Shown here: positions 4,683 through 47,430 of the stretch, piece by piece
Numbering within the stretch: the first letter of the stretch is position 1
How the letters are laid out: each line of letters starts with the position of its first letter
NCBI GenBank assembly: GCA_013290045.1
Contig: JABCYU010000002.1
Span: 1 to 47,430 of the forward strand
DNA: 47,430 nucleotides
Source: Methanobacteriota archaeon
GTDB lineage: Archaea; Thermoplasmatota; Thermoplasmata; Lutacidiplasmatales; UBA184
Reading direction: 5' to 3'
Program-made: the position numbers and the translations under genes
The notes under the pieces: generated by a model
The model's input: the letters and a program-made list of their open reading frames with translations, nothing else
Databases searched by the model: none
What the model was told of the DNA's origin: nothing

Positions 4683-5252
4683 GTGACGCGCTCGCGGCTT
4701 CTCCGCCTCGGCCGGGTCAACGTCACCCGATGGTGCGATGCTCCGGAACCGGAGCACGAGGCCTACGTCACCCGGCTCTGGAACGGGGTGGTCCAGACAA
4801 ACCCTGACGGTACGCAGGAGGAGCGCGGCGGGATCAAGTACGTCGCCGATGCCAAGGGGCTGAGCGAGCAGGTCGTCCACATCTGGATGGATTTCGTCAG
4901 CTCGGGGCGCCGACCCCCGAGCATCCCCCGCCGATCGCAGGACCTGCTCCTCGAGCTCGCGAAGAAGGGAGGCATCGACCTCAGCCCCCGGCCCACCTAC
5001 GACATTCCGGCCAAACCCGGGTCCCCCTACGAACCGGCATTCCGCGTCTACACTCGGCTCCGAGCGGTTCTGGCCGTGGCCTCCCTCGCGCTGTGCGGGT
5101 TCCTCGCGGTCTCCTTCCTCGTCCCCCTCCCGTTCCCCACCGTCCCGATCGACCTCCCGGCCCTCGTGTCCTTCGTTGGGATCATCGTCCTCGCCGAGGT
5201 GTTCATCCTTTCCGACCAGAACGCGACGGTCCGGTTGGGGGCGGCCCACTGA
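4683..5252 (+). CDS. membrane protein, cytoplasmic N-domain plus 2 TM segments
   Basis: GTG start. The C-terminal half LRAVLAVASLALCGFLAVSFLVPLP...LVSFVGIIVLAEVFIL is hydrophobic. First gene of the plus-strand block. Confidence 0.75.
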   Translation: MTRSRLLRLGRVNVTRWCDAPEPEHEAYVTRLWNGVVQTNPDGTQEERGGIKYVADAKGLSEQVVHIWMDFVSSGRRPPSIPRRSQDLLLELAKKGGIDLSPRPTYDIPAKPGSPYEPAFRVYTRLRAVLAVASLALCGFLAVSFLVPLPFPTVPIDLPALVSFVGIIVLAEVFILSDQNATVRLGAAH

Positions 5253-7054
5253 TGCCCGGCCACACCGAGAATCTGTTCCCCTCTCGAAAAAAGAGCCGAA
5301 AGGCCTTGACCCCATTCGCCTCCGACGAAGAGTTCGTCAACTACGTCAACACGGGAGCGGTGTTCCCGGTCGGTTTCCATAAGCCGGGGGCGCCGGTAGG
5401 CCGGGACGGCGTGTTCCCGGATGCCACTCGTCTGCGGGTCGTCAAATCGAGGCCCGATCGATTCATCGCAGACGGCCGCGCAACGATCCCCGCGCCTGAG
5501 GACTTCGTCCGGGCGTTGCACGCCCGTATGCTCTGGGTGCAGTACGACGTCAGTCATCCCGACTCAGTGAGCATCTGCTGGGACCCAAGGTTTCGACGAG
5601 CCCGACTCCCCAGCGGTTTCGCCGCTGGCGCCACCGCGTCGATTGTCGCCCTCCTTTTCCTCCTCACGCTCCTACTGCCGCTGGCCGGAGCCAACGGGGT
5701 GACCCCGATCCCCCCGAACGCTGCTTCGACCCCCGCCCGCCAAGCAATTGCAGCGACCTCGCCTGGGGAAAGCGCCTACGTCGAGAGCTTCCTGCTTTCT
5801 CAGAAGCTGGTTCCCCAGTCTGTCCTCGCGTGCGCCGGAGCCTGCAGGGACCTCACCACGGGCTTTGCGAATGTTTCCGTCCCGACCAACTACCTCGGGT
5901 CCGGCTCGATCATCGAAGGTGCGGGAAACTATTGGATCAACGTCACGTCTGGTTGCGGCGGGAGCTGCCCCGCGTACTCGCTGACGTGCAACTCGGTCTC
6001 GTTCAACCCGACGGCCGGGCAGAGCCCGTGCTACGCCTCCGCGGTCAATTTCAACGGTGCCCAGGTCACGACCGTTCCGCAGTACAACGTCACCCGATTG
6101 GTGACCTACGCGATCCCCGAGGCGGCCTCGTGGATAGGGTCGTACAGTGGGGCTTCGCTCACGTCGTCCGTCACCTCGTTCAAGCCCGACGTCTTCACCT
6201 TCGGAGCTCCCGGCAAGCTGCTGGGGTACGACGTCCTAGCGATCTCCTGGGCCGTCCCGATGCCCTCCGGGACATTCGTCGCCTCGAAGACCACAGTCGA
6301 GTTCCTGAACACCAGCACCTTCCTCACCGGCGGGTCCCAATTCCTCCTGGGCTCGCAGTGGATCCTCATCCAGTGGGCACGGCTTCCCGTCCCAAGCTGT
6401 GTCACCTGCGACGTGCCCTACAGCCACGCGGAGGTCCAGAACTACCTATTCAACCTCTACTACGCGATTCCCCCACCGACGGCGGGGAATGGGATCCTTC
6501 CGCCGCCCTCGGTCAACTCAACCATCCCCCCCGGAATCATCCCGGGGCAGATCCCCGGGTTCGCCCCGATCGTGCTCGTCCTTTCGACTCCGCAGCAGAC
6601 CTCCCCGAACAACTGGAGCGAGGTCTTGGCGTGGCTGAACTACAACTGGTACGTCTCGGTGAGCGGGTTCGAGGTGGTATCGAGCTGGTTCGTCAAGGCC
6701 TCCAACGTCACCCTGTCCATCAATGGGGTCCCCCTTCCCAAGACCTCGTACACCGTCTCGAAAACCACGCTCTACGTCTACCCCGGTACGGTCTCAGTAG
6801 TGAACGGGACCTACGTCGCTCTAGGAGTCACCTTCCACTACTCCCCCAGCTTCGACCCGCTCGCGCCGGTAGGGGTCGTCGACGGGCTCCCAGTCACGCC
6901 GGGAGGAGTGATCGTGGCACTCGCCGTCGTCGCCACGATCCTGCTCGGCTACCGTGAGATCACTGACCCGGAGTTTCGGAAGTCCGGGAAAGCCAGCGCC
7001 GCCCTGGGGTCGCTGATGATGGGCCTGTTCGCCCTGGTGGTGCTCTACCTGTGA
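5252..7054 (+). CDS. large membrane-anchored, sequon-rich surface protein (600 aa)
   Basis: The ATG overlaps the upstream stop (TGATG). N-terminal TM IVALLFLLTLLLPLAGA and C-terminal TMs (VIVALAVVATILLGY, LGSLMMGLFALVVLYL). At least 8 N-x-S/T sites (NVS, NVT, NTS, NST, NWS, NGT). Confidence 0.85.
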   Translation: MPGHTENLFPSRKKSRKALTPFASDEEFVNYVNTGAVFPVGFHKPGAPVGRDGVFPDATRLRVVKSRPDRFIADGRATIPAPEDFVRALHARMLWVQYDVSHPDSVSICWDPRFRRARLPSGFAAGATASIVALLFLLTLLLPLAGANGVTPIPPNAASTPARQAIAATSPGESAYVESFLLSQKLVPQSVLACAGACRDLTTGFANVSVPTNYLGSGSIIEGAGNYWINVTSGCGGSCPAYSLTCNSVSFNPTAGQSPCYASAVNFNGAQVTTVPQYNVTRLVTYAIPEAASWIGSYSGASLTSSVTSFKPDVFTFGAPGKLLGYDVLAISWAVPMPSGTFVASKTTVEFLNTSTFLTGGSQFLLGSQWILIQWARLPVPSCVTCDVPYSHAEVQNYLFNLYYAIPPPTAGNGILPPPSVNSTIPPGIIPGQIPGFAPIVLVLSTPQQTSPNNWSEVLAWLNYNWYVSVSGFEVVSSWFVKASNVTLSINGVPLPKTSYTVSKTTLYVYPGTVSVVNGTYVALGVTFHYSPSFDPLAPVGVVDGLPVTPGGVIVALAVVATILLGYREITDPEFRKSGKASAALGSLMMGLFALVVLYL

Positions 7055-26869: not shown

Positions 26870-27441
26870 CAGTAGTCTCCAATCTCTTTCTGGATTCGAA
26901 TGGTGCCCCGCTCGACGCCGACCTCGACGAGGAAATCGGTCAGTGCCTGATTCGCATCCGTGAGGCTCACATCGGTGGTCCCGTACGCCCGGCTATCGCC
27001 GTACTCGGGATCCGCGAAGTGCTTGTGACCCCCCTTCGATCGCGTTTTCTGGACCGGGTCTAGGTGGCCGGGTCGCTTGTCCCACCTACGGATCACCACG
27101 GTGCCCTTGTAGAGGAGGGAGAATCCGAATCCCGTTCCGGTCGGGTTTCTCCAGCCTCTCACTCTGAGGGGAGTTCCGTCCGGGCATTCAAGCTCGACTA
27201 GGAGGTCACGAAACCCCCCCGTGCGGATGCCCCAGGTGATCGAGGTCAACACTCGCTTCGGCTGCGCCGCAGCGAGGTAATCCGCCTCCTCCTTGTCGAT
27301 CGGTGCTCCGGAGGTCAATGAGCCGGGATTCTGGGATGGGGTACATAAACCCGCCGGGGGCGCTAGGATGGTGTCCACCACCACCGACCGCCACACGCGC
27401 AATGGTACGGGTGGTTCGAGCATGGGTGCCAAATCGGTCAT
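26869..27441 (-). CDS. hypothetical protein (190 aa), unknown function
   Basis: Well-formed ORF, ATGA-coupled to the recombinase gene. Contains the His-rich segment IRRWDKRPGHLDPV...GGHKHFADPEYG. Confidence 0.8.
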   Translation of the reverse strand: MTDLAPMLEPPVPLRVWRSVVVDTILAPPAGLCTPSQNPGSLTSGAPIDKEEADYLAAAQPKRVLTSITWGIRTGGFRDLLVELECPDGTPLRVRGWRNPTGTGFGFSLLYKGTVVIRRWDKRPGHLDPVQKTRSKGGHKHFADPEYGDSRAYGTTDVSLTDANQALTDFLVEVGVERGTIRIQKEIGDY

Positions 27442-28091
27442 CTTGCCACACCCGCCGGAACCGGGTCCGCCCCCCTCGAAGCCTTGGGGGTCCCTTTTGA
27501 CACGCCTTCGCAGACCCGACGCACGGACGAGAGGGCTTCTTCGGGGAGACCGAGGCGGTCGAGGATACCCCTCCAGCTGGTCCCCCGCTTCCTAAGTGTC
27601 CGAGCCGTGTCAGGATCGAAGGCGTAGACACGGGGGCGTCCGAGGGCCTTCCCCTGAGCACGAGCTCGGGCCAGTCCGGCCTTGGTCCGGTCGGAGATCC
27701 TCAGGTGCTCCTGTTCGGCTACCCATGAGAGAACCGAAAGGAGCAACTCGGCAATCCTCGGGTCCGTCGCTCGGAGAAACGGCTCCTTGTAGGACACCAG
27801 TGGGGTCCCATACTCGTTGAGCCGCTTCAGCAGCTGGAGGGTCGGGCCGATGCCCTGGCGGGAGAACCGGTCCAGGGCCCAGACCAAGACGAGGTCGAAC
27901 TTCCGTTCGTGCGCGTGAGAGAGCAGCTGCTTCAGCTTCTCCCGATCGGGTTCCCAACCATGTTCGGTCTCCCGAAACTCCCCGGTGACCTCCCAGCCCT
28001 GTCTATCGGCGTATTCCCTAAGATCCCGAATCTGATTCTCGGTGTCCTGCTTCGAAGTGGATACCCGAGCGTAGATGGCGACTCGCGTCAC
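27438..28091 (-). CDS. small serine recombinase (resolvase/invertase family) with a C-terminal HTH
   Basis: VAIYARVSTSKQD (catalytic Ser), LVLVWALDRFSR, ISDRTKAGLARARAQGKALGRP, and a C-terminal HTH. GTG 28091 overlaps the HNH gene stop (GTGA). Confidence 0.9.
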   Translation of the reverse strand: MTRVAIYARVSTSKQDTENQIRDLREYADRQGWEVTGEFRETEHGWEPDREKLKQLLSHAHERKFDLVLVWALDRFSRQGIGPTLQLLKRLNEYGTPLVSYKEPFLRATDPRIAELLLSVLSWVAEQEHLRISDRTKAGLARARAQGKALGRPRVYAFDPDTARTLRKRGTSWRGILDRLGLPEEALSSVRRVCEGVSKGTPKASRGADPVPAGVAR

Positions 28092-28612
28092 GCTTCGACC
28101 TCCAGGCGCGACTGGTTCGGTGCGATGACGTACTTGGGCTTCGTCAGGAAGGCCGCTGTCTTCTTCCGGTGGCACTCGGAGCACAGGAGCTGGACGTTCT
28201 CAGGGTCGAGCGGATCGCCTCCCCTCGCGATTTCCACAATATGATCGTACTCCCAGCGCCATGTCTTCCACCGTGGGTCCGTGCTTTCGGGACTCCCCGC
28301 CCCGCACCCCCGACAGGTCCCGTCGTCCCGCTTCCAGACGACCCGCTTGGTGATGTGCCATGCGCGATAGTAGAGGTCATAGAAAGCGTCCGAGCAACCG
28401 GAGTGGTAAGCGGCACGTCGCCCCAGCTTATTCGGCGTAATCGGCTTGTGACACCCGAGGCAGTTCCGGGTTCTGCCAGATGCGGCGAGAGCGAGAAGAC
28501 GTCTGCCTTGGGCCGTCCACCCGTGCGGCGTCCCCTGGCCGAGGTGACCGAGGCGACGCTGCGTTCGTTCCCTCTGACGCTGGGCGACCTCTATAGGGTC
28601 CGTACGCCTCAC
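28088..28612 (-). CDS. HNH endonuclease
   Basis: CRGCG ... EYDHIVEIARGGDPLDPENVQLLCSECHRKKT, plus an N-terminal CLGC...C Zn motif. Confidence 0.85.
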   Translation of the reverse strand: MRRTDPIEVAQRQRERTQRRLGHLGQGTPHGWTAQGRRLLALAASGRTRNCLGCHKPITPNKLGRRAAYHSGCSDAFYDLYYRAWHITKRVVWKRDDGTCRGCGAGSPESTDPRWKTWRWEYDHIVEIARGGDPLDPENVQLLCSECHRKKTAAFLTKPKYVIAPNQSRLEVEA

Positions 28613-40995: not shown

Positions 40996-42005
40996 CCTGC
41001 CACCCGTTCGTAGTTCGCGACCAGGGTGTCGGCGGCGCGCTCGTAGGAGTGGCGACAGGCCACTGCCCTGACCGCTCCCGGTTGGGGAGTGGGCCAGTCC
41101 GTCGCCTCGAGGATCTTTGCGCGCAGTTGGCTGCGGGTAGCGTCCGAGGAGTACCAGCACACCGAGGACGCAGGGTAGGAATCCGTGTAGGGCCGCAGCT
41201 CCGGAAGAAGAACAGCCCCGCCGCGGAGGAAGTGCTCGAGCGGAGGGATGTGGAACCCTTCGTAGTCCGAGGTCGAGACGTAGACCCGAGATTGACGGTA
41301 CAGGGTGTCCAAATCCCCAGCCGACAGGTCGGTGAAGACCGTGACCGAGGCACCCCGCCGCCGGGCAGCCCCCACCCAGTCGCCGACGACCGACTCATGC
41401 CTCGCGGAGCGAAGCCGGACCACGATCGCCGCGGGTCTGCGTTCGGGAAGGGCCGCCAGCAGCCGCTCGAGCCCCTTGTTGGGGCAGCTGTCCCCGACCC
41501 AGATCACGTCGTAGAGCGGGGGGAGCCGCGTGATGGGCATCGGCGGGATCGGGATCAGGGTGACGAAGCACTTCTCCGCGATCTTCGGACCGAATCGCTT
41601 TGCGAGGAGGTCGCGAGTGAACTGCGATGCGCAGTCAATCCTCTTCGCCCGCCTCGCGGCGGCCCGAACGTAGTGGTCCCCGACCTGGGAGTAGACCCCT
41701 CCAAGAATCGAGGGTGCCAGGTCGTGGATGCACACCACGTCGGCCCCCTCCCAGGCGATCCACGGGATCAGAACGTGGGTGACCCGTCCATTCGGCCCGT
41801 CGTGCAACCACCGCCGGTGGAATTCCCAGAGGGAACGTACGATGCCGCCCCTTGACTTTCCCTTGGACGTTGCCACCGAACTCAGCTCGGCTCTGACCCG
41901 GCCCCTGAGGGCCTCGGCATACGCCTGCCCCCGAAGGGGGATGCTGACCGACGCGCCGTTGGCAGGGAACATGAGATTGACTCCGCGGTCGAGCCTGCCG
42001 CTCAC
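40992..42005 (-). CDS. GT-B glycosyltransferase (family 4-like)
   Basis: C-terminal STSDYEGFHIPPLEHFLRGGAVLLP (E-x7-E region). GTG 42005 overlaps the upstream TGA. Confidence 0.85.
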   Translation of the reverse strand: MSGRLDRGVNLMFPANGASVSIPLRGQAYAEALRGRVRAELSSVATSKGKSRGGIVRSLWEFHRRWLHDGPNGRVTHVLIPWIAWEGADVVCIHDLAPSILGGVYSQVGDHYVRAAARRAKRIDCASQFTRDLLAKRFGPKIAEKCFVTLIPIPPMPITRLPPLYDVIWVGDSCPNKGLERLLAALPERRPAAIVVRLRSARHESVVGDWVGAARRRGASVTVFTDLSAGDLDTLYRQSRVYVSTSDYEGFHIPPLEHFLRGGAVLLPELRPYTDSYPASSVCWYSSDATRSQLRAKILEATDWPTPQPGAVRAVACRHSYERAADTLVANYERVAG

Positions 42006-42325
42006 GGGCTGACTCCAAGAGGCACACTCGGGCCGGGCCGGCCAGGCCGGCCGGTCTGGCCGGACTCGAACTCGTTCCATCTCGCCAGGTTGAGAGTCTG
42101 ACGGACCCGCTCCGCATGGGCGTCCGCGGCGATGCGATGCACGAAGAGAAGCCGAGCACCCGCCTTGCCCAGCTCGTCCTCAACAGCCTTGGCGACCTTC
42201 CAGTCTGGCTTCGTGGTCTCCCGGACCACCCGAACGATCGCGTTCAGGCGGCCCGATAGAGTGATCGCCAACCGCTCGAGCTCGGGGCGGCTCAGTTGCG
42301 ACACGTCGACTGGGCGGGCGGTCAT
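42002..42325 (-). CDS. hypothetical helical protein (107 aa)
   Basis: MTARPVDVSQLSRPELERLAITLSGRLNAIVRVVRETTKPDWKVAKAVEDELGK... ATGA coupling. Confidence 0.7.
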   Translation of the reverse strand: MTARPVDVSQLSRPELERLAITLSGRLNAIVRVVRETTKPDWKVAKAVEDELGKAGARLLFVHRIAADAHAERVRQTLNLARWNEFESGQTGRPGRPGPSVPLGVSP

Positions 42326-43062
42326 CCGGCGATACTCCCCGTGTCGTCGAGCGTTCGGACGGCGAAGTTGCCCCTCAGGTAGTGGTACTGATCAACCGTG
42401 GTGGGGAGTGGGATGGCCACGTCCAGCTGCCACGCCTTCTCTTCCGGGTCCAGTACCGCGGGTCGGAGGACCCCCTTGTCGCAGAAGTCAACGGTGGTCA
42501 CCCGCCGACGTGCCGGGCGGTAGTCCGGGAAGGTATGGGCGATGACCCGGTCGATGTCTGTGAACGGGGCAGCCCAGCGGGTCGGCTTGGGACCGAACAG
42601 CGCGGAGACCGCCAGGATGGCCTTGTGGTCCACCTTCCGGCCGGCGACCCTGCCCAACGCACGCACACGCGCCGATTCCCGCGACTGGTCCAGCAAGCGG
42701 CGGATCGTGGCGGATCCTACGGGCGGCCGGCCACCCGCTAGGCCCTTGGGTTTCCCGACCCCCATCGAGATGACGAGTCCCTTCTTGGTGGTCTCCCGGA
42801 CGTGCCTCTGGTACTCCTCCCAGTCCCGATCCGTCCAGTAGACCGTGCGTGCCCGGACCCGATTTGGGGTTCGAGTTCCACTAGTGGAACTACCGAGTTC
42901 CACCGGTGGAACTACCAAGTTGTACCGGTGGAACTTGGGAGTGGGGGAGGGGTCCCCACGGCTGAAATCCGACCCGGAAACTGCAGTCTCTGAGGTGAGC
43001 CTCCGGGAGTGGGAGAGACTTCCCTCCGGAACGTCGTGTGTGTGTGAGTACTTGCTGTCCAT
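42322..43062 (-). CDS. putative DNA-binding protein (HTH-like GKPKGLAGGRPPVGSATIRRLLDQ); the 5' part of the gene carries the palindromic repeats
   Basis: 246-aa ORF. GC3 is high from codon ~75 onward. The N-terminal ~70 aa are low-complexity and include the repeat-encoded FHRYNLVVPPVELGSSTSGT. Confidence 0.75.
   Translation of the reverse strand: MDSKYSHTHDVPEGSLSHSRRLTSETAVSGSDFSRGDPSPTPKFHRYNLVVPPVELGSSTSGTRTPNRVRARTVYWTDRDWEEYQRHVRETTKKGLVISMGVGKPKGLAGGRPPVGSATIRRLLDQSRESARVRALGRVAGRKVDHKAILAVSALFGPKPTRWAAPFTDIDRVIAHTFPDYRPARRRVTTVDFCDKGVLRPAVLDPEEKAWQLDVAIPLPTTVDQYHYLRGNFAVRTLDDTGSIAG
42873..42938. repeat. three tandem 22-bp units, each an 18-bp palindrome AGTTCCAC-YR-GTGGAACT (third copy imperfect)
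   Basis: GAGTTCCACTAGTGGAACTACC / GAGTTCCACCGGTGGAACTACC / AAGTTGTACCGGTGGAACTTGG, read directly from the sequence. Confidence 0.9.
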
Positions 43063-43066
43063 GCGA

Positions 43067-43249
43067 TCAGAGCACCCTGTTCTGCACGACGTAGCACGGG
43101 TGAGCGGAGCCAGGGGCGTAGGCGGCGAGAAGCGGCCCGAAGTTGCGCAGGTCGTGATCCACGCGGGGAACCGGACACGGAGGCGCCGGCTGGCTGGACA
43201 CCTTTGGACCTGAAACCGACGGGCAGTCCCAGAGGGGCGGCTCCTCCAT
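43067..43249 (-). CDS. small hypothetical protein (60 aa)
   Basis: MEEPPLWDCPSVSGPKVSSQPAPPCPVPRVDHDLRNFGPLLAAYAPGSAHPCYVVQNRVL. The ATG overlaps the upstream TGA by 1 nt. Confidence 0.5.
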   Translation of the reverse strand: MEEPPLWDCPSVSGPKVSSQPAPPCPVPRVDHDLRNFGPLLAAYAPGSAHPCYVVQNRVL

Positions 43250-43494
43250 CAGAGCCTCCTCTGCGGCGCTCGGAAGATGGGGTCCAACGCCTCGGAATAC
43301 CCGTGGACCGGGCAGAACGAGAGCCGGAGGACCTCGTTGTGAATTGGGTCCGACCTGCACCGGCGGCAAACGAACCCGGTTCTCGCGAGCGGTCGACGTG
43401 TCGCGATCGATGCAACTCTGAACCCGGAGGAATCGACGGGGAAGAACAACGAGGACGGTACCGGGAGTTGCTGGGCGGAGCGGATGGCGATCAA
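43249..43494 (-). CDS. small Cys-containing protein (81 aa)
   Basis: The TTG start overlaps the phosphoesterase stop (TTGA). CRRCRSDPIHNEVLRLSFCPVHG. Hand-counted GC3 ~80 %. Confidence 0.55.
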   Translation of the reverse strand: MIAIRSAQQLPVPSSLFFPVDSSGFRVASIATRRPLARTGFVCRRCRSDPIHNEVLRLSFCPVHGYSEALDPIFRAPQRRL

Positions 43495-44942
43495 TCCACG
43501 TCCGCTCCGTCGCCGTGGTCGTTGGCGAAGTAGCTCGAGACCGAGAACGGGACCGCCTGCCAGGGCGCGTCGGGGGCCTGGAGCGCCATTGGGTAGGTCG
43601 CCCCTGTGGCATTCGTCGAAAACGCGAGAGGCGCCCTCGGGCGCATCGAGAAATTGAAGAATCCGAGAGGGAGGGGCGCGTAGCAGTCCCGCGGGGTGAT
43701 GCAGCCCAGCTTCTCGCGGACCTCCATCAGGTGGAGAAGCGACTCGAAGTACCCCTGGGAGGAGTCGACGGTCCCTGCCGGAGTGTAGGGGCTGATCACC
43801 AGGAGAGGCACGCGGAACGACAGGGACGTCCCGTTGAGGAGTGGTGGCGCGACCTGGTCATACCAGCCCCCGTAATCGTCCCAAGTGACGAACAGCGCGG
43901 TGGAGTTCCAATTCGGCGAGGACTCGACAGCGTCCACGACCGACGCCAGCCACGATTCGGCTGTCGTGACGTTCGCCGGCGGGTGATCCGACTCGAGGTG
44001 GAAGGGGATTACCCAGGACAGCTGGGGCAGGTTCCCCGCGGCAGCGTCCTGGAAGAACGTCGGGTTCCAGACGAAGTGCTTCCGCAGAAGATGGCCGTAG
44101 GACTCGTATTTGCCGGCCTGGGGATTCCAGTAGTCGATCGCGCTCCCGAGGTGACCGGGTCCGGCGGAGATGTTCTGGGCGTCGGTCAGGTTCGGTTGCA
44201 GCGCGTAGTCGTAGTACTTCCAGCTGACGCTGGGGTGGTGGAGGAGGAGGTCCTCGACCGAGGTGGTGTTGTTTGCCTCGCGGTAGTACGTCGCCCGATC
44301 GCTGGCGTTACCCGCGAAACCGCCGGTCCTGTCCCCGAACCCGAACTGCTCCGAGATCGGGGGGGCCTGACCCGCCACCAGGAACCAGTGGTTGGGCAGG
44401 GAGTAGCTGAGGGTCGACGAAAAGAAGTTGTCGCCGAGGCCGTACTCCTCCGCGAGATCCCAGTAGGTCGGAACCGTCGACCCGCTGTAGTAGCCGAACG
44501 GATCGAGGCCCGATCGTTCGTCGAGGTAGAAGTTGTTGTCGGACGAGTTGTTCCACGCCGATAGAGAAGAGACCTGATCGTGGAGCATCGGTTGGGTGAT
44601 GGTCCAGTTCGCACGGGTGAACGGCCACGGCTTGACGCAGGCCGATGCGGAGCTCGGGTTGAGTGGCGCGCACAACCCAGCGGGGTAGCCAACGACCGTC
44701 GACGGGCAGTACTTTCCCTTCGCTTGGCAGTAGGTCCCGAATTCGTTGTCGAACGCGTGGTTTTCGAGGACCACGACCACGATGTGCTTGATGTGGGAAT
44801 CGAAGAGCTGCAGCTGGGTCTGGCTCTTGGCGGGGGCGGTCGGTGAGTGGCCGGTCGCCCAAGGGAGAGGGCTGAGCAGGAGCCCGGCAGTCAGCGCGAG
44901 CATCGCCAGTTTCAAAGCCCGGCCTCCCGCATGTCGGGCCAC
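43491..44942 (-). CDS. secreted phosphoesterase-family protein (phospholipase C/acid phosphatase AcpA-like)
   Basis: Signal LKLAMLALTAGLLLSPLPWA. IKHIVVVVLENHAFDNEFG, LPNHWFLVAGQ, LFVTWDDYGGWYDQVAPP. Several sequons. Confidence 0.9.
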   Translation of the reverse strand: MARHAGGRALKLAMLALTAGLLLSPLPWATGHSPTAPAKSQTQLQLFDSHIKHIVVVVLENHAFDNEFGTYCQAKGKYCPSTVVGYPAGLCAPLNPSSASACVKPWPFTRANWTITQPMLHDQVSSLSAWNNSSDNNFYLDERSGLDPFGYYSGSTVPTYWDLAEEYGLGDNFFSSTLSYSLPNHWFLVAGQAPPISEQFGFGDRTGGFAGNASDRATYYREANNTTSVEDLLLHHPSVSWKYYDYALQPNLTDAQNISAGPGHLGSAIDYWNPQAGKYESYGHLLRKHFVWNPTFFQDAAAGNLPQLSWVIPFHLESDHPPANVTTAESWLASVVDAVESSPNWNSTALFVTWDDYGGWYDQVAPPLLNGTSLSFRVPLLVISPYTPAGTVDSSQGYFESLLHLMEVREKLGCITPRDCYAPLPLGFFNFSMRPRAPLAFSTNATGATYPMALQAPDAPWQAVPFSVSSYFANDHGDGADVD

Positions 44943-44971
44943 ACAGTCAGTCGGGACCGGCGGGACGAGTC

Positions 44972-44996
44972 GGAGCCCCGCGGATTCGAACCGCGC
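44972..44996 (-). other. tRNA-like 3' fragment (T arm plus 3' acceptor strand) without a matching 5' half
   Basis: The minus strand reads CGCGG-TTCGAAT-CCGCG-GGGCTCC-G. No GGAGCCC 5' strand or canonical D/anticodon arms were found within 110 nt upstream. Confidence 0.45.
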
Positions 44997-45517
44997 TCGG
45001 GCCTAGCCGGTGCTTCGGACTCGCCCCCGTCGGGTGAAGGGGACCGAGGATCCCGACGCGCCCGTTTCGCGCTCCACGCCTTCCTCGGCCCTTGCCCTGC
45101 TTGTCCCCGGTTGTTTCGCCGGTCGGGGGCTGGTCCCCCCCGGGCTAGTCGCGGCCCCTTCGCGCCTCGACCTGCAGACGTGGAGCGTGACAGCCAGCAC
45201 TCGCAACCCGTCTCTAGACAGAAATCGCAGAGCGGGTGCTGGCAGGTTACTGAGAAACGGGGGGAAAGGGTTGGACCGCGTGCGCGGTAGTCACGCAGGA
45301 GGCGGTCTGCGGAGCGGGTGGAATCCGCTGGTCCGGGGGCGATTCCGGGGAACAGACGGGCAATTTCTCGAGGTGAAAGGCCCTGTCCAGACTAGGCTAC
45401 ACGCCCCGAGAACCCGGCCCTTTTCCGGCACTTTACACCTTCGGTCCCGTAGAAGCCGACCGCGACGCCGACGCGCTTATCGCGACTCTTCGAGCCCGCC
45501 GTAATCCAACACTTTCC

Positions 45518-45541
45518 CCGGGGGACTTTGCAGTCCCCCGG
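45518..45541. promoter_or_regulatory. perfect 10-bp hairpin/palindrome CCGGGGGACT-TTGC-AGTCCCCCGG ~70 nt upstream of the prim-pol gene
   Basis: Read directly from the sequence. Function unknown (operator, origin element or RNA structure). Confidence 0.4.
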
Positions 45542-45612
45542 ACTTCGTTCTCTCGCTGCGAGTGTCCCTCTCATCGCCCGCGTCCCGCCGTCCGACGACG
45601 GGAGGGCGTCCT

Positions 45613-47430
45613 GTGAACGCTCGCCTCGAGGCCGCCCTCGAGTATGCTGCGGCCGGCTACCCGGTCTTTCCCGTGGGCGCCGGGAAGGACGGGAAGGCAC
45701 CGCTCACCCCCCGCGGGTTCCACGATGCTACCCGGGATGTCGCCATCATCCGCGCGTGGTGGACTCGCTGGCCGGACGCGAAGATCGGGATACCGACCGG
45801 GGCCGTGACCGATACCTTCGTCCTCGACATCGACCCCCGCCATGGGGGCGACGTCTCCCTACGGCTGCTCCTCGAGGAGAACAAGCCGCTCCCGGAAGGC
45901 CCCGAGTCCCTCACCGGGGGCGGCGGGAACCACCTGATCTACAGCCATCCTGGAGGCGACGTGGCCTGCGTTACCGGGTTCCGGCCCGGGATCGACATCC
46001 GGGCCGACCGGGGGTACATCATCGTCCCCCCGTCGCCCCATGACTCCGGCGGGACCTATCAGTGGAGGGTCCCGCTGCTCGGCGCCACGAAGCCGTTGGT
46101 CCCCGCGTGGCTGTTTAAGATCGCCACAGAGCACTCCGCTGAGCCGTACAAGGGCGGCACGTCTCCGGTGAACATCCCGCCTCCCGCGGAGGACACCACG
46201 ATCCTCGAGCGCATCTTCACCGGCCCGAACGGGGACCTCCACCGGCGCGTCTACGAGAACTACCTCGCGAAGGCCCACGAGAAGGACCACCCAGCGTACG
46301 TCGCCTTCGCCACCGCCCTCCACCTCGCCGGCGCCCATGAAGAGCAGGTCCCGCGAATCCTTCGCTTCACGGAGGAGAGCTGGGAAAAGTTCGGGCGCGC
46401 GATCTGGCGGCATCTCGTGAGCAAGGGTGGATACTACCGCCGCCGGGCCACCCTGGTCCGCGTCTCCGCGCTCTACAAGGAGGCCGCCGAGGCCATGGGA
46501 GCCAAGAGGGTGCAACCGACACCGGTTCAACCTTCCCGGGTCGACGAGCTCTCGCCCGAGGACCGGACCGGCAATCCCGTGCTGGACGAGGCCATCGCCG
46601 CGATGCTAGTCGACGAGGCCGTCCCATTGGTTATCGGGGGCGCGACGGAATGGGACACAGACGGGAACCCGGTGGACGCGACGCGCGCCGAGATAGCCGC
46701 CGGGGGCGGGTGGGTTCCGGACAGAGTCAGGGTCCGAGGTGCGTATGAGCTCCGTGGAATGCGTCGGCTTGTCCGCCAGGAGGGCGGCTGGCGGGTCGAC
46801 CGAGCTCCTCTGGGTTCGGAGAGCGACGGGGCACTCCCAACCGGAGAGCGCGCGCGGGCGCTTTGCTCCGAGGTGGACGCCCTCGTCGCCCCTCGACCGG
46901 ACCCCGTCGGTGTGGAGGCTCTCGAGGAGGGCGAGCCCGCAGAGGAGATCCAGATGGACGCCGTTCTCGCTTATCAGCACCTCTTCGCCATGGAGTGGAA
47001 GCACTCCACCCGGAAGATCCGGGTGAACCCGCGGACGTCCAAACCCACCGTCACGTACCGGGCGCGCCGGGTGCGCGGCTGGAATGACGCGGCGTCGAAC
47101 CGCGAGCGGATGCTACGTTCCGTTCGGGAGAGGTCGGCATTCTTCGTCGCCCATGGCGGGGAGGAGGTCCGGGCCTACTCGACCGGAGAGATTCCGTTCC
47201 CGCCGAAGGGCGTCGGCACCCGGGGGCTCCGCATCAAGCTCGTCCGCGCGGTGACCTACAAGGCGTCGGCCTCGATGGTATTCGTCGTCCCGGGGAACGG
47301 GGCCGCCGAAACGATCAGGGTCGTGGCATTCAGGTTTGGAGGCGAGGAGCATCCCCCGGCCCTCGACGACTTCCGGTCCGCGCTCAACACGACCATCAAG
47401 AAGGTCTACGGCGCCAAACATGACTTCCAC
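45613..47430 (+). CDS. bifunctional DNA primase-polymerase (prim-pol) replication protein, 3'-partial (runs off the window); not in the ORF track
   Basis: I checked the frame codon by codon and it is open from GTG 45613 (preceded by GGGAGGG) to 47430. AAGYPVFPVGAGKDGKAPLTPRGFHDAT, WWTRWPDAKIGIPTG, FVLDIDPRHGG, GGGNHLIYSHP, DIRADRGYIIVPPS. This is followed by a PriCT-like helical region. Confidence 0.9.
   Translation, partial: MNARLEAALEYAAAGYPVFPVGAGKDGKAPLTPRGFHDATRDVAIIRAWWTRWPDAKIGIPTGAVTDTFVLDIDPRHGGDVSLRLLLEENKPLPEGPESLTGGGGNHLIYSHPGGDVACVTGFRPGIDIRADRGYIIVPPSPHDSGGTYQWRVPLLGATKPLVPAWLFKIATEHSAEPYKGGTSPVNIPPPAEDTTILERIFTGPNGDLHRRVYENYLAKAHEKDHPAYVAFATALHLAGAHEEQVPRILRFTEESWEKFGRAIWRHLVSKGGYYRRRATLVRVSALYKEAAEAMGAKRVQPTPVQPSRVDELSPEDRTGNPVLDEAIAAMLVDEAVPLVIGGATEWDTDGNPVDATRAEIAAGGGWVPDRVRVRGAYELRGMRRLVRQEGGWRVDRAPLGSESDGALPTGERARALCSEVDALVAPRPDPVGVEALEEGEPAEEIQMDAVLAYQHLFAMEWKHSTRKIRVNPRTSKPTVTYRARRVRGWNDAASNRERMLRSVRERSAFFVAHGGEEVRAYSTGEIPFPPKGVGTRGLRIKLVRAVTYKASASMVFVVPGNGAAETIRVVAFRFGGEEHPPALDDFRSALNTTIKKVYGAKHDFH

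Follow-up and report, generated by a model that had tools for sequence, protein, structure and literature searches.

The question raised by this locus is what three tandem palindromes are doing inside a protein-coding gene. The locus lies in a stretch of 47,430 nucleotides (nt) from contig JABCYU010000002.1 (hereafter the window), which has a guanine-cytosine (GC) content of about 64% and represents a mobile element, viral or integrative-plasmid in nature, from Thermoplasmata archaea. The palindromes form an array of three 22-base-pair (bp) units at 42873-42938, in the 5' part of a minus-strand gene at 42322..43062 (the focal gene), which encodes a protein of 246 amino acids (aa) from a small family. 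A previous inspection of the letters (the sequence-only reading) interpreted them as cooperative binding sites for a dimeric DNA-binding protein, such as an operator, iterons, an origin or partition sites. In this work, the array was compared with its counterparts in related elements, and its possible functions were weighed against each other.

The array was assigned to neither strand and was defined by the sequence read, by repeat statistics and by homologous arrays in 11 other loci. Unit 1 (GAGTTCCACTAGTGGAACTACC, 42873-42894) contained the dyad AGTTCCACTAGTGGAACT at 42874-42891 and unit 2 (GAGTTCCACCGGTGGAACTACC, 42895-42916) the dyad AGTTCCACCGGTGGAACT at 42896-42913, both of them perfect, and unit 3 (AAGTTGTACCGGTGGAACTTGG, 42917-42938) contained the dyad AGTTGTACCGGTGGAACT at 42918-42935 with 2 mismatches, which was just as the sequence-only reading had described them. 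The form of the dyad in the window was AGTTCCAC-NN-GTGGAACT over 18 bp, with TTCC and GGAA 10 bp apart centre to centre, so that 18-bp dyads were placed every two helical turns with one weaker site among them. Tandem Repeats Finder reported the interval 42872-42935 with a period of 22, 2.9 copies, 88% matches and a score of 93, the top of 26 rows for the window. When as many as 3 mismatches were tolerated, AGTTCCACNNGTGGAACT matched the window 4 times against 0.26 expected, a count reached by none of 100 shuffles, and three of these matches were located at the array (0, 0 and 2 mismatches). The two perfect units were the only occurrences of TTCC-N6-GGAA in the 47 kb, and no second dyad cluster was found in the window under relaxed pattern searches. 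When folded as a single strand, the array reached -25.6 kcal/mol (z = -6.1 versus shuffles).

The focal open reading frame (ORF) was uninterrupted across the array, which spans codons 41-63 and encodes the stretch KFHRYNLVVPPVELGSSTSGTRT. The GC content of third codon positions (GC3) was 0.48-0.52 across the array, compared with 0.80-0.92 in the remaining part of the gene. Public gene calls gave identical coordinates, and the same ORF was called in three independent public assemblies that are about 99.99% identical. Based on the alignment and the structure models, the protein was divided into an N-terminal extension (residues 1-70, 42853..43062, minus strand), which carries the array and is poorly conserved, rich in P, S and T and modelled at low confidence, and a conserved core (residues 71-246, 42325..42852, minus strand), which begins in the alignment at residues 71-77 (RTVYWTDRDWEEYQ). 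R112, P113, R182, P183 and Y228 were invariant in the alignment, which yielded a GGRPP motif. The gene is coupled downstream to a 107-aa helical protein (42002..42325, minus strand) by an ATGA overlap at 42322-42325, and a 60-aa ORF directly upstream (43067..43249, minus strand; GC3 0.77-0.87) stops 4 nt before the focal ATG at 43062. The earlier claim of an ORF that stays open through the repeats, within a translationally coupled operon, was thus confirmed on both flanks.

Translation could begin later than the called start, and the array itself offers two alternative in-frame starts, the TTG codon at 42918-42916 and the GTG codon at 42903-42901. A start downstream of the array, which would leave all of it in intergenic DNA, was rejected for the window and for the related loci L001, L019 and L022 because no in-frame ATG, GTG or TTG occurs between array and core, and the array is therefore translated there. 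Such a start held only for L147 and L024. In L147 the frame is broken at the array by TGA and the gene begins with ATG 10 nt after it; in L024 the break is TAA and the gene begins with GTG 5 nt after the array.

The family was then defined by an exhaustive HMMER search, which found 12 representatives among 1.84 billion proteins; this search was needed, as a word-indexed protein search gave 1 homologue from the single sequence and 3 from a profile. All members were in mobile-element contexts and two were attributed to Thermoplasmata: P0003 is encoded exactly by L057, which belongs to a Thermoplasmata metagenome-assembled genome and is 240 kb long, and P0010 is named as originating from a Thermoplasmata archaeon. 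The loci compared were all those family members whose DNA could be fetched. All 12 carried 2-3 copies of AGTTyC-N5/6-rAACT, spaced 21-24 bp and placed just upstream of the conserved core, and the proposed check for homologues lacking the repeats therefore turned up none. A search for the half-site elsewhere had also been proposed; the dyad motif was confined to the array in the window, and a motif of the same type recurred at the array position in the relatives. The units were three copies of TTCCACCGG(T/C)GGAA in L020, L021 and L057 (P0003), three of TTCCACCCCCGGAAC in L019 (P0004), AGTTTCACCCCCTAAAC, ACTTCCACCCCCTTATC and ATTCCGCCCCCTAAAC in L001 (P0002), the GTTTCACCCGTCGAAC type in L145 (P0006), GTTTCCCCCGGGAAAC in L146 (P0007), two copies of GTTTCATCACCCAAAC in L022 (P0008), AAGTTCCTACCTACTAACTT in L147 (P0010), TTACGACACGAAAC in L023 (P0009), AGTTACCGACAGTAACT in L148 (P0011) and AGTTCTG..C.AACT in L149 (P0012). 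In L024 (P0005), one clear ATTCCGACACCGGAAT unit was accompanied by a degenerate second unit seen by eye.

The position of the array was as stable as its presence. The distance from the array to the GGRP codons was near-fixed across the family loci, and in one subfamily the units began about 200, 177 and 154 nt before these codons, within 3 nt over six loci. As a control, 16-mers in the predefined interval were matched to the sequence 21-24 nt away, and the best such self-match was compared with background windows of the same locus. The phased self-match beat every background window in 10 of the 12 loci, stood at 0.8% in L001 and was not significant in L024. Position and period were kept across proteins 27-44% identical, with turnover of the spacers. 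L020, L021 and L057 shared the TTCCACCGGTGGAA core of the window, with proteins merely 44% identical and different spacers. The motif variants followed the protein subgroups, CAC-CG-GTG being found, for example, with RP(A/P)RRR, and CACCCC or GACACC with RPPRRLH.

The evidence points to constraint on DNA, not on protein, because the units are read in three frames, the array lies outside the ORF in two loci (L147 and L024) and the peptide is not conserved. The period of 22-23 bp shifts successive units into different frames, so that AGTTCCAC in the window was read as KFH, VVPP and SST; the EFHP/KFH likeness among some homologues is the half-site translated. The outcome named in advance as fatal to a binding-site array, a conserved peptide over freely varying DNA, was thus the opposite of what was seen, as the DNA motif was kept and the peptide was poorly conserved. 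Frame-independent conservation therefore favours the part of the sequence-only reading that saw a binding-site array, for which that reading had named operators, iterons, origins and partition sites as alternatives.

Which protein might bind the array was approached through the focal product. Neither the focal protein nor its core nor its neighbours could be placed in a family by searches against Pfam, PHROG, NCBIfam and PDB sequences. In the AlphaFold models, residues 1-70 had block means of 39-55 in the predicted local distance difference test (pLDDT), and the core was modelled as a short strand and helix (RTVYWTDRDWEEYQ), a low-confidence GGRPP linker, a long helix and a C-terminal domain of beta-alpha-alpha-beta-beta order with pLDDT 87-96. 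Foldseek comparison of two AlphaFold models with PDB gave nothing significant (best E value 0.3-0.5). The weak neighbours were mostly winged-helix proteins, namely linker histones H1/H5, Fur/Zur/PerR, MarR, TFE-alpha, winged-helix domains of the origin recognition complex (ORC) and F93 of Sulfolobus turreted icosahedral virus (STIV). The C-terminal domain may thus be winged-helix-like and a candidate DNA binder, a lead rather than a result. The helix-turn-helix (HTH)-like segment proposed by the sequence-only reading finds an echo in this modelled resemblance and none in Pfam, PHROG or NCBIfam.

Based on these observations, we infer that the array is a cooperative operator bound by dimers of the product of its own gene, which feeds back on an early operon with DNA-modification genes, a reading to which we give an even chance of being correct. 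In this model, the three helically phased dyad sites (22 bp, about two turns) would form a cis-acting operator, and dimers of a DNA-binding protein would occupy them cooperatively on one face of the DNA. The binder would most probably be the focal product, acting through its winged-helix-like C-terminal domain, the GGRPP arm or both. Occupancy would repress the focal gene and the coupled downstream genes, that is, the partner of about 100 aa followed by glycosyl-/methyltransferases, a HerA-like ATPase, DUF5131 and the C5 and N4/N6 DNA methylases. The sites would be overprinted on the translated N-terminal extension, which could be tolerated because the N-terminal peptide is under little constraint. 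The own product would be the most economical binder because the array is exclusive to the family, motif and protein diverge jointly and the product resembles a DNA binder; given such binding, negative autoregulation of the operon would be the most economical function. Three features of the operator class were found: the dyads of 18 bp fall within the 14-20 bp range, the phasing is by integral turns (22 bp here and 21-24 bp in the 11 relatives), and the sites are linked to the regulator's own gene in 12/12 loci. The genomic context also fits a regulatory or early module.

Phased arrays of this kind are known from other regulators. OR1-3 of phage lambda is a multipartite autoregulatory operator of a dimeric repressor. 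Restriction-modification (R-M) C proteins, which are Xre-type HTH proteins of about 80-100 aa with C-boxes just upstream and with linked R and M genes, and the com/mom system of phage Mu are similar, on general knowledge, in that a DNA-binder-like product is associated with palindromes at its own gene and with DNA-modification genes downstream, and the zinc-ribbon protein encoded just upstream of the focal gene recalls Mu Com. Unlike the R-M C proteins, the focal protein has no HTH_3/Xre domain and its sites are 18-bp dyads every 22 bp, so that the likeness is one of gene order and logic only; no restriction endonuclease was identified in the window save an HNH ORF 14 kb away. Among archaeal regulators, Ss-LrpB of Sulfolobus binds its own control region at three palindromic boxes of 15 bp with regular spacing (PMC1802622). 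The array shares with lambda OR and Ss-LrpB 2-3 dyad sites at the own gene, a phasing that would place adjacent dimers on the same side and one degenerate site, which is usual in cooperative arrays, but in most family members its sites fall within translated DNA at the 5' end of the gene. Moreover, the focal protein has no sequence relationship with Lrp, Cro/cI or any described HTH family.

Several points weigh against the autoregulatory operator. No promoter was found at or near the array in a scan that covered sigma-70 promoters only and is inapplicable to archaea, and no TATA-like or B recognition element (BRE)-like sequence near the array was obvious by eye. In the window and most relatives, the array is enclosed in an ORF some 2 kb downstream of the beginning of what appears to be a long coupled operon, an atypical position for an archaeal repressor site. 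The structural assignment is weak (Foldseek E value 0.3-0.5) and is accompanied by no sequence match to any HTH family. The co-variation of motif and protein is confounded by the common ancestry of whole loci, and alternative candidates for the binder are the conserved protein of about 90 aa encoded downstream and the zinc-ribbon protein encoded upstream. Finally, a simple operator leaves unexplained two further conserved boxes upstream of the array. The first is an alternating purine-pyrimidine (Pu-Py) tract, CACACACACACG, at 43035-43046 (minus strand); in the window, L001, L019 and L020, TACGCACGCACGC-like tracts precede the GGRP codons by about 311-319 nt, and in L024 and L023 they do so by 284 nt and 251 nt, falling in differing frames or in non-coding DNA. 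The second is the CCTCAGAGAC box at 42986-42995 (minus strand; family consensus CGTCAGAGAC), which lies between the Pu-Py tract and the array and keeps an atypical TCA serine codon despite the strong GC3 bias. Both boxes occupied the same relative positions in L001, L019, L020, L023, L024 and L145-L149, and they could be promoter parts, origin parts or the site of another factor.

Of the rival explanations, an in-gene replication origin of the ori-lambda type survives best, and we consider it unlikely. The units would then be iterons bound by the gene's own product, which would act as an origin-binding protein and recruit the element's Prim-Pol or a host helicase. Palindromic iterons of 18-19 bp inside the coding sequence of the initiator are the defining layout of lambdoid origins (PMC7466680), and the array likewise consists of imperfect inverted repeats embedded in the ORF of its presumed binder. 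The element encodes a Prim-Pol yet no recognised origin-binding protein, there is one array per element, and the additional conserved upstream boxes would suit a composite origin. Against this, an AT-rich unwinding tract beside the array was absent in 12/12 loci, in which the minimum 40-nt GC content within +/-200 nt was 0.40-0.58; the minimum coincided with the array itself in five loci and had no consistent position in the others. The arrays have only 2-3 units, compared with 4-6 in the middle of the gene for the ori-lambda type, and they precede the conserved core, whereas the lambda O array follows the DNA-binding domain. No Phage_rep_O, Rep_3 or other initiator domain was found in the focal protein with Pfam, PHROG or NCBIfam, and a Rep_3/RepA-type iteron origin was likewise at odds with the absence of any Rep family match, with one winged-helix-like domain only and with the missing unwinding element. 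A more conventional origin candidate is the 680-bp intergenic region beside the Prim-Pol gene. GC skew was uninformative as an origin marker in the window and was confounded by gene strand.

One locus outside the family bears on the same rival. In L161, five GTTCCAC-NN-GTGGAAC units, whose half-site is that of the window, lie in a Phage_rep_O gene (PF04492, 36 bits), so that such a layout does occur with this half-site. L161 was recovered from the metagenome contigs by searching for this very pattern, however, and the identity may be a coincidence. At 2560-2790, the locus shows a textbook lambdoid origin inside this gene, with two TTATCCACA DnaA boxes before the iterons and an AT-rich tract (GC 0.33) after them. 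It is a metagenomic phage-like contig of GC 0.65 with a RusA gene upstream, and its Phage_rep_O protein is not homologous to the focal protein. The window resembles ori-lambda and L161 in that imperfect inverted repeats of 18-19 bp recur about every 22 bp within the gene of the presumed binder, over an unconserved peptide linker or extension; it differs in having no DnaA boxes, in having just three units, whose place is the 5' end of the gene ahead of the conserved domains, and in its archaeal host. It is unlikely, in our estimate, that the family represents a previously unrecognised class of origin-binding proteins of Thermoplasmata mobile elements, with an origin (iterons, Pu-Py tract and CGTCAGAGAC box) in its own 5' coding region; if it did, the family would be an archaeal, non-homologous counterpart of ori-lambda and O.

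A centromere-like or architectural site of the parS/ParB or pNOB8 AspA type, serving partition or DNA compaction rather than transcription control and bound by the focal protein or by the conserved small neighbour proteins, is less probable still. The parS site is a 16-bp palindrome with the half-site GTTTCAC, and it may lie inside the parB/spo0J coding sequence. The half-site of the window (GTTCCAC) is similar and is also located within a gene, each element has one palindrome cluster, and the focal gene is paired with a small helical partner. The window dyad differs, however, by 2 extra central bp, and its sites are tandem rather than dispersed. No locus had an adjacent ParA/Walker partition ATPase, the focal protein has no ParB_N domain, and no cassette encoded a ParB_N or PadR-like centromere-binding protein; a ParB_N protein was present 1 kb upstream in L020 only. 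In addition, some of the carriers seem to sit as integrated copies in large chromosomal contigs (about 240 kb), a setting that requires no centromere.

A recombination accessory site (arm-type, res-like, or bound by an Xis-type recombination directionality factor) for the integrase or the serine recombinase is very unlikely. Phased tandem sites are the targets of winged-helix excisionases, the cassette is found close to element edges with an integrase (L019), a transfer RNA (tRNA) gene (L022) or resolvase genes 1-2 kb downstream (L024, L146), and the products encoded in the window include a serine recombinase (27438..28184) and, at the left end, part of an integrase. A serine recombinase dimer, as known from the res sites of Tn3/gamma-delta, requires about 25-34 bp per site, and the spacing between the sites is unequal. 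The 18-bp dyads at a uniform 22 bp are too short and too regular for such subsites, the resolvase gene lies 15 kb away from the array and a tRNA-like putative core of the attachment (att) site 2 kb away, and the window holds no second copy of the array as a recombination partner.

That the array has no function at the DNA level, being a chance or slippage repeat, an RNA hairpin or a peptide-selected repeat, is scarcely credible, as the ORF open through the array and the potential of the units of the window and L020 to fold into three RNA hairpins are outweighed by conservation of array position and period across divergent proteins despite spacer turnover, by reading of the units in three frames, which leaves no peptide repeat, and by hairpins that are not conserved. 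An RNA hairpin element was rejected, since most relatives have merely dyad ends of 3-4 bp.

The autoregulatory operator and the in-gene origin have different consequences. Phased operator or iteron arrays are of a well-known kind; what is new is this family with its sites in unstudied archaeal elements, together with the overprinting of binding sites on a translated N-terminal extension. To our knowledge, the cis-regulatory and origin elements of archaeal mobile elements are almost unknown outside Sulfolobales and haloarchaea, and we know of no experimental system for Thermoplasmata elements. The protein family and its candidate targets, with natural variants in 12 loci, form a ready specificity series and a clear case of candidate binding sites overprinted on translated DNA. 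If the array is an operator, it would mark the control point of an operon with the DNA-modification genes of the element; if it is an origin, archaeal elements would gain their first described in-gene origin.

The genes around the focal gene were also partly conserved. Upstream of the 60-aa ORF, a small zinc-ribbon-like ORF (43249..43494, minus strand) contains CxxC and FCPVHG, and DNA coding for FCPxHG was kept upstream of the focal gene in six loci (the window, L001, L019, L022, L024 and L145). In most family loci, the focal gene was followed by a homologue of the 107-aa partner, of about 85-92 aa. The 107-aa gene itself carries at its 3' end a low-complexity GGCC/GGCCGGGCC run (42029-42063), which encodes GRPGRPGP and was not present in the homologous small proteins. 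The genes after the cassette in most loci encoded an N6_N4 methylase, a C5 methylase, Mom, a resolvase or DUF5131. The cassette tended toward the edge of the element, with an integrase directly upstream in L019, a tRNA-Arg 470 bp upstream in L022 and a host aconitase gene 2.8 kb upstream in L024. In L145, an apparent frameshift was observed at about 500-620, between the segment YLSERNWTEFQ...EKRGLV and GGRPP; P0006 thus appears to be a pseudogene or an assembly error there, and the late TTG start in its public call is due to this frameshift.

Elsewhere in the window, a Prim-Pol gene (PF09250) runs off the right end and an integrase-like N-terminus runs off the left end. Further genes encode C2H2 zinc fingers, a ribbon-helix-helix-like ORF, HNH, C5 and N4/N6 DNA methylases, DUF5131, a HerA-like ATPase, an ASCH protein and secreted PKD, Kelch and fn3 proteins. 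The serine recombinase (27438-28184, minus strand) has a Resolvase N-terminal domain with weak IS607/invertase affinities. A small serine recombinase recurs in cassette-bearing elements, at 5727-6260 in L024 and 3912-4586 in L146, 1-2 kb downstream and after a methylase, and this recurrence suggests a mobile regulator-methylase-recombinase module. In a long block of plus-strand ORFs at 5093-25846, Pfam and PHROG recognised only a CAAX protease, PKD, Kelch and fn3. Many N-x-S/T sequons were seen in the translations inspected at the two ends of the window, for example in 5093-7054 and in the phosphoesterase at 43491-44942, and the 5093-7054 product has a hydrophobic stretch at its C-terminus. 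The block probably encodes envelope or surface glycoproteins of an undescribed type of archaeal virus or element.

Two adjacent plus-strand tRNA genes were found, for Ile (anticodon TAT, 35086-35173) and Arg (anticodon TCT, 35183-35272), which are 81% identical. AUA and AGA, the codons they decode, are expected to be rare at 64% GC. The genes measure 86-90 nt against a tRNA model of 71 positions, each with an insertion of about 15 nt that is possibly an intron. A publicly annotated 341-aa ORF on the opposite strand overlaps both genes without strong GC3 bias and may be spurious. Within the 680-bp intergenic region (44943-45620) that separates the Prim-Pol gene from the leftward operon, the sequence GCGCGGTTCGAATCCGCGGGGCTCC at about 44966-45000 (minus strand) resembles a tRNA T-arm with the 3' acceptor strand and lacks the 5' half. 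ARAGORN and Rfam made no call for it, and an Rfam scan of the whole intergenic region gave nothing meaningful. This tRNA-like sequence may be the attachment-site core of the element.

Pattern scans of other collections were also carried out. Viral contigs scanned for the single palindrome gave 15 lone occurrences and no tandem array, which were taken as chance, and the scan of metagenome contigs gave no further family member. Genome contigs scanned with two copies of TTCCAC-N4-GGAA returned mostly Bacteroidales and Streptomyces noise, with one relevant match, L057. A different, multicopy intergenic element made up most of L150-L183, on contigs of 40-51% GC: it consists of 2-4 tandem TTTCCAC-NN-GTGGAAA palindromes, one per 22 bp, between the conserved flanks tgtcaggcgactatttggtacacgcc... 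and ...ctcccctttaatgagtgcccctttg, and was present on many contigs of single genomes. Similar genome matches among L025-L104 came from Bacteroidales, Bacteroidaceae, Prevotella and Porphyromonas, and this element looks like a repeat of the repetitive extragenic palindromic (REP) or miniature inverted-repeat transposable element (MITE) type.

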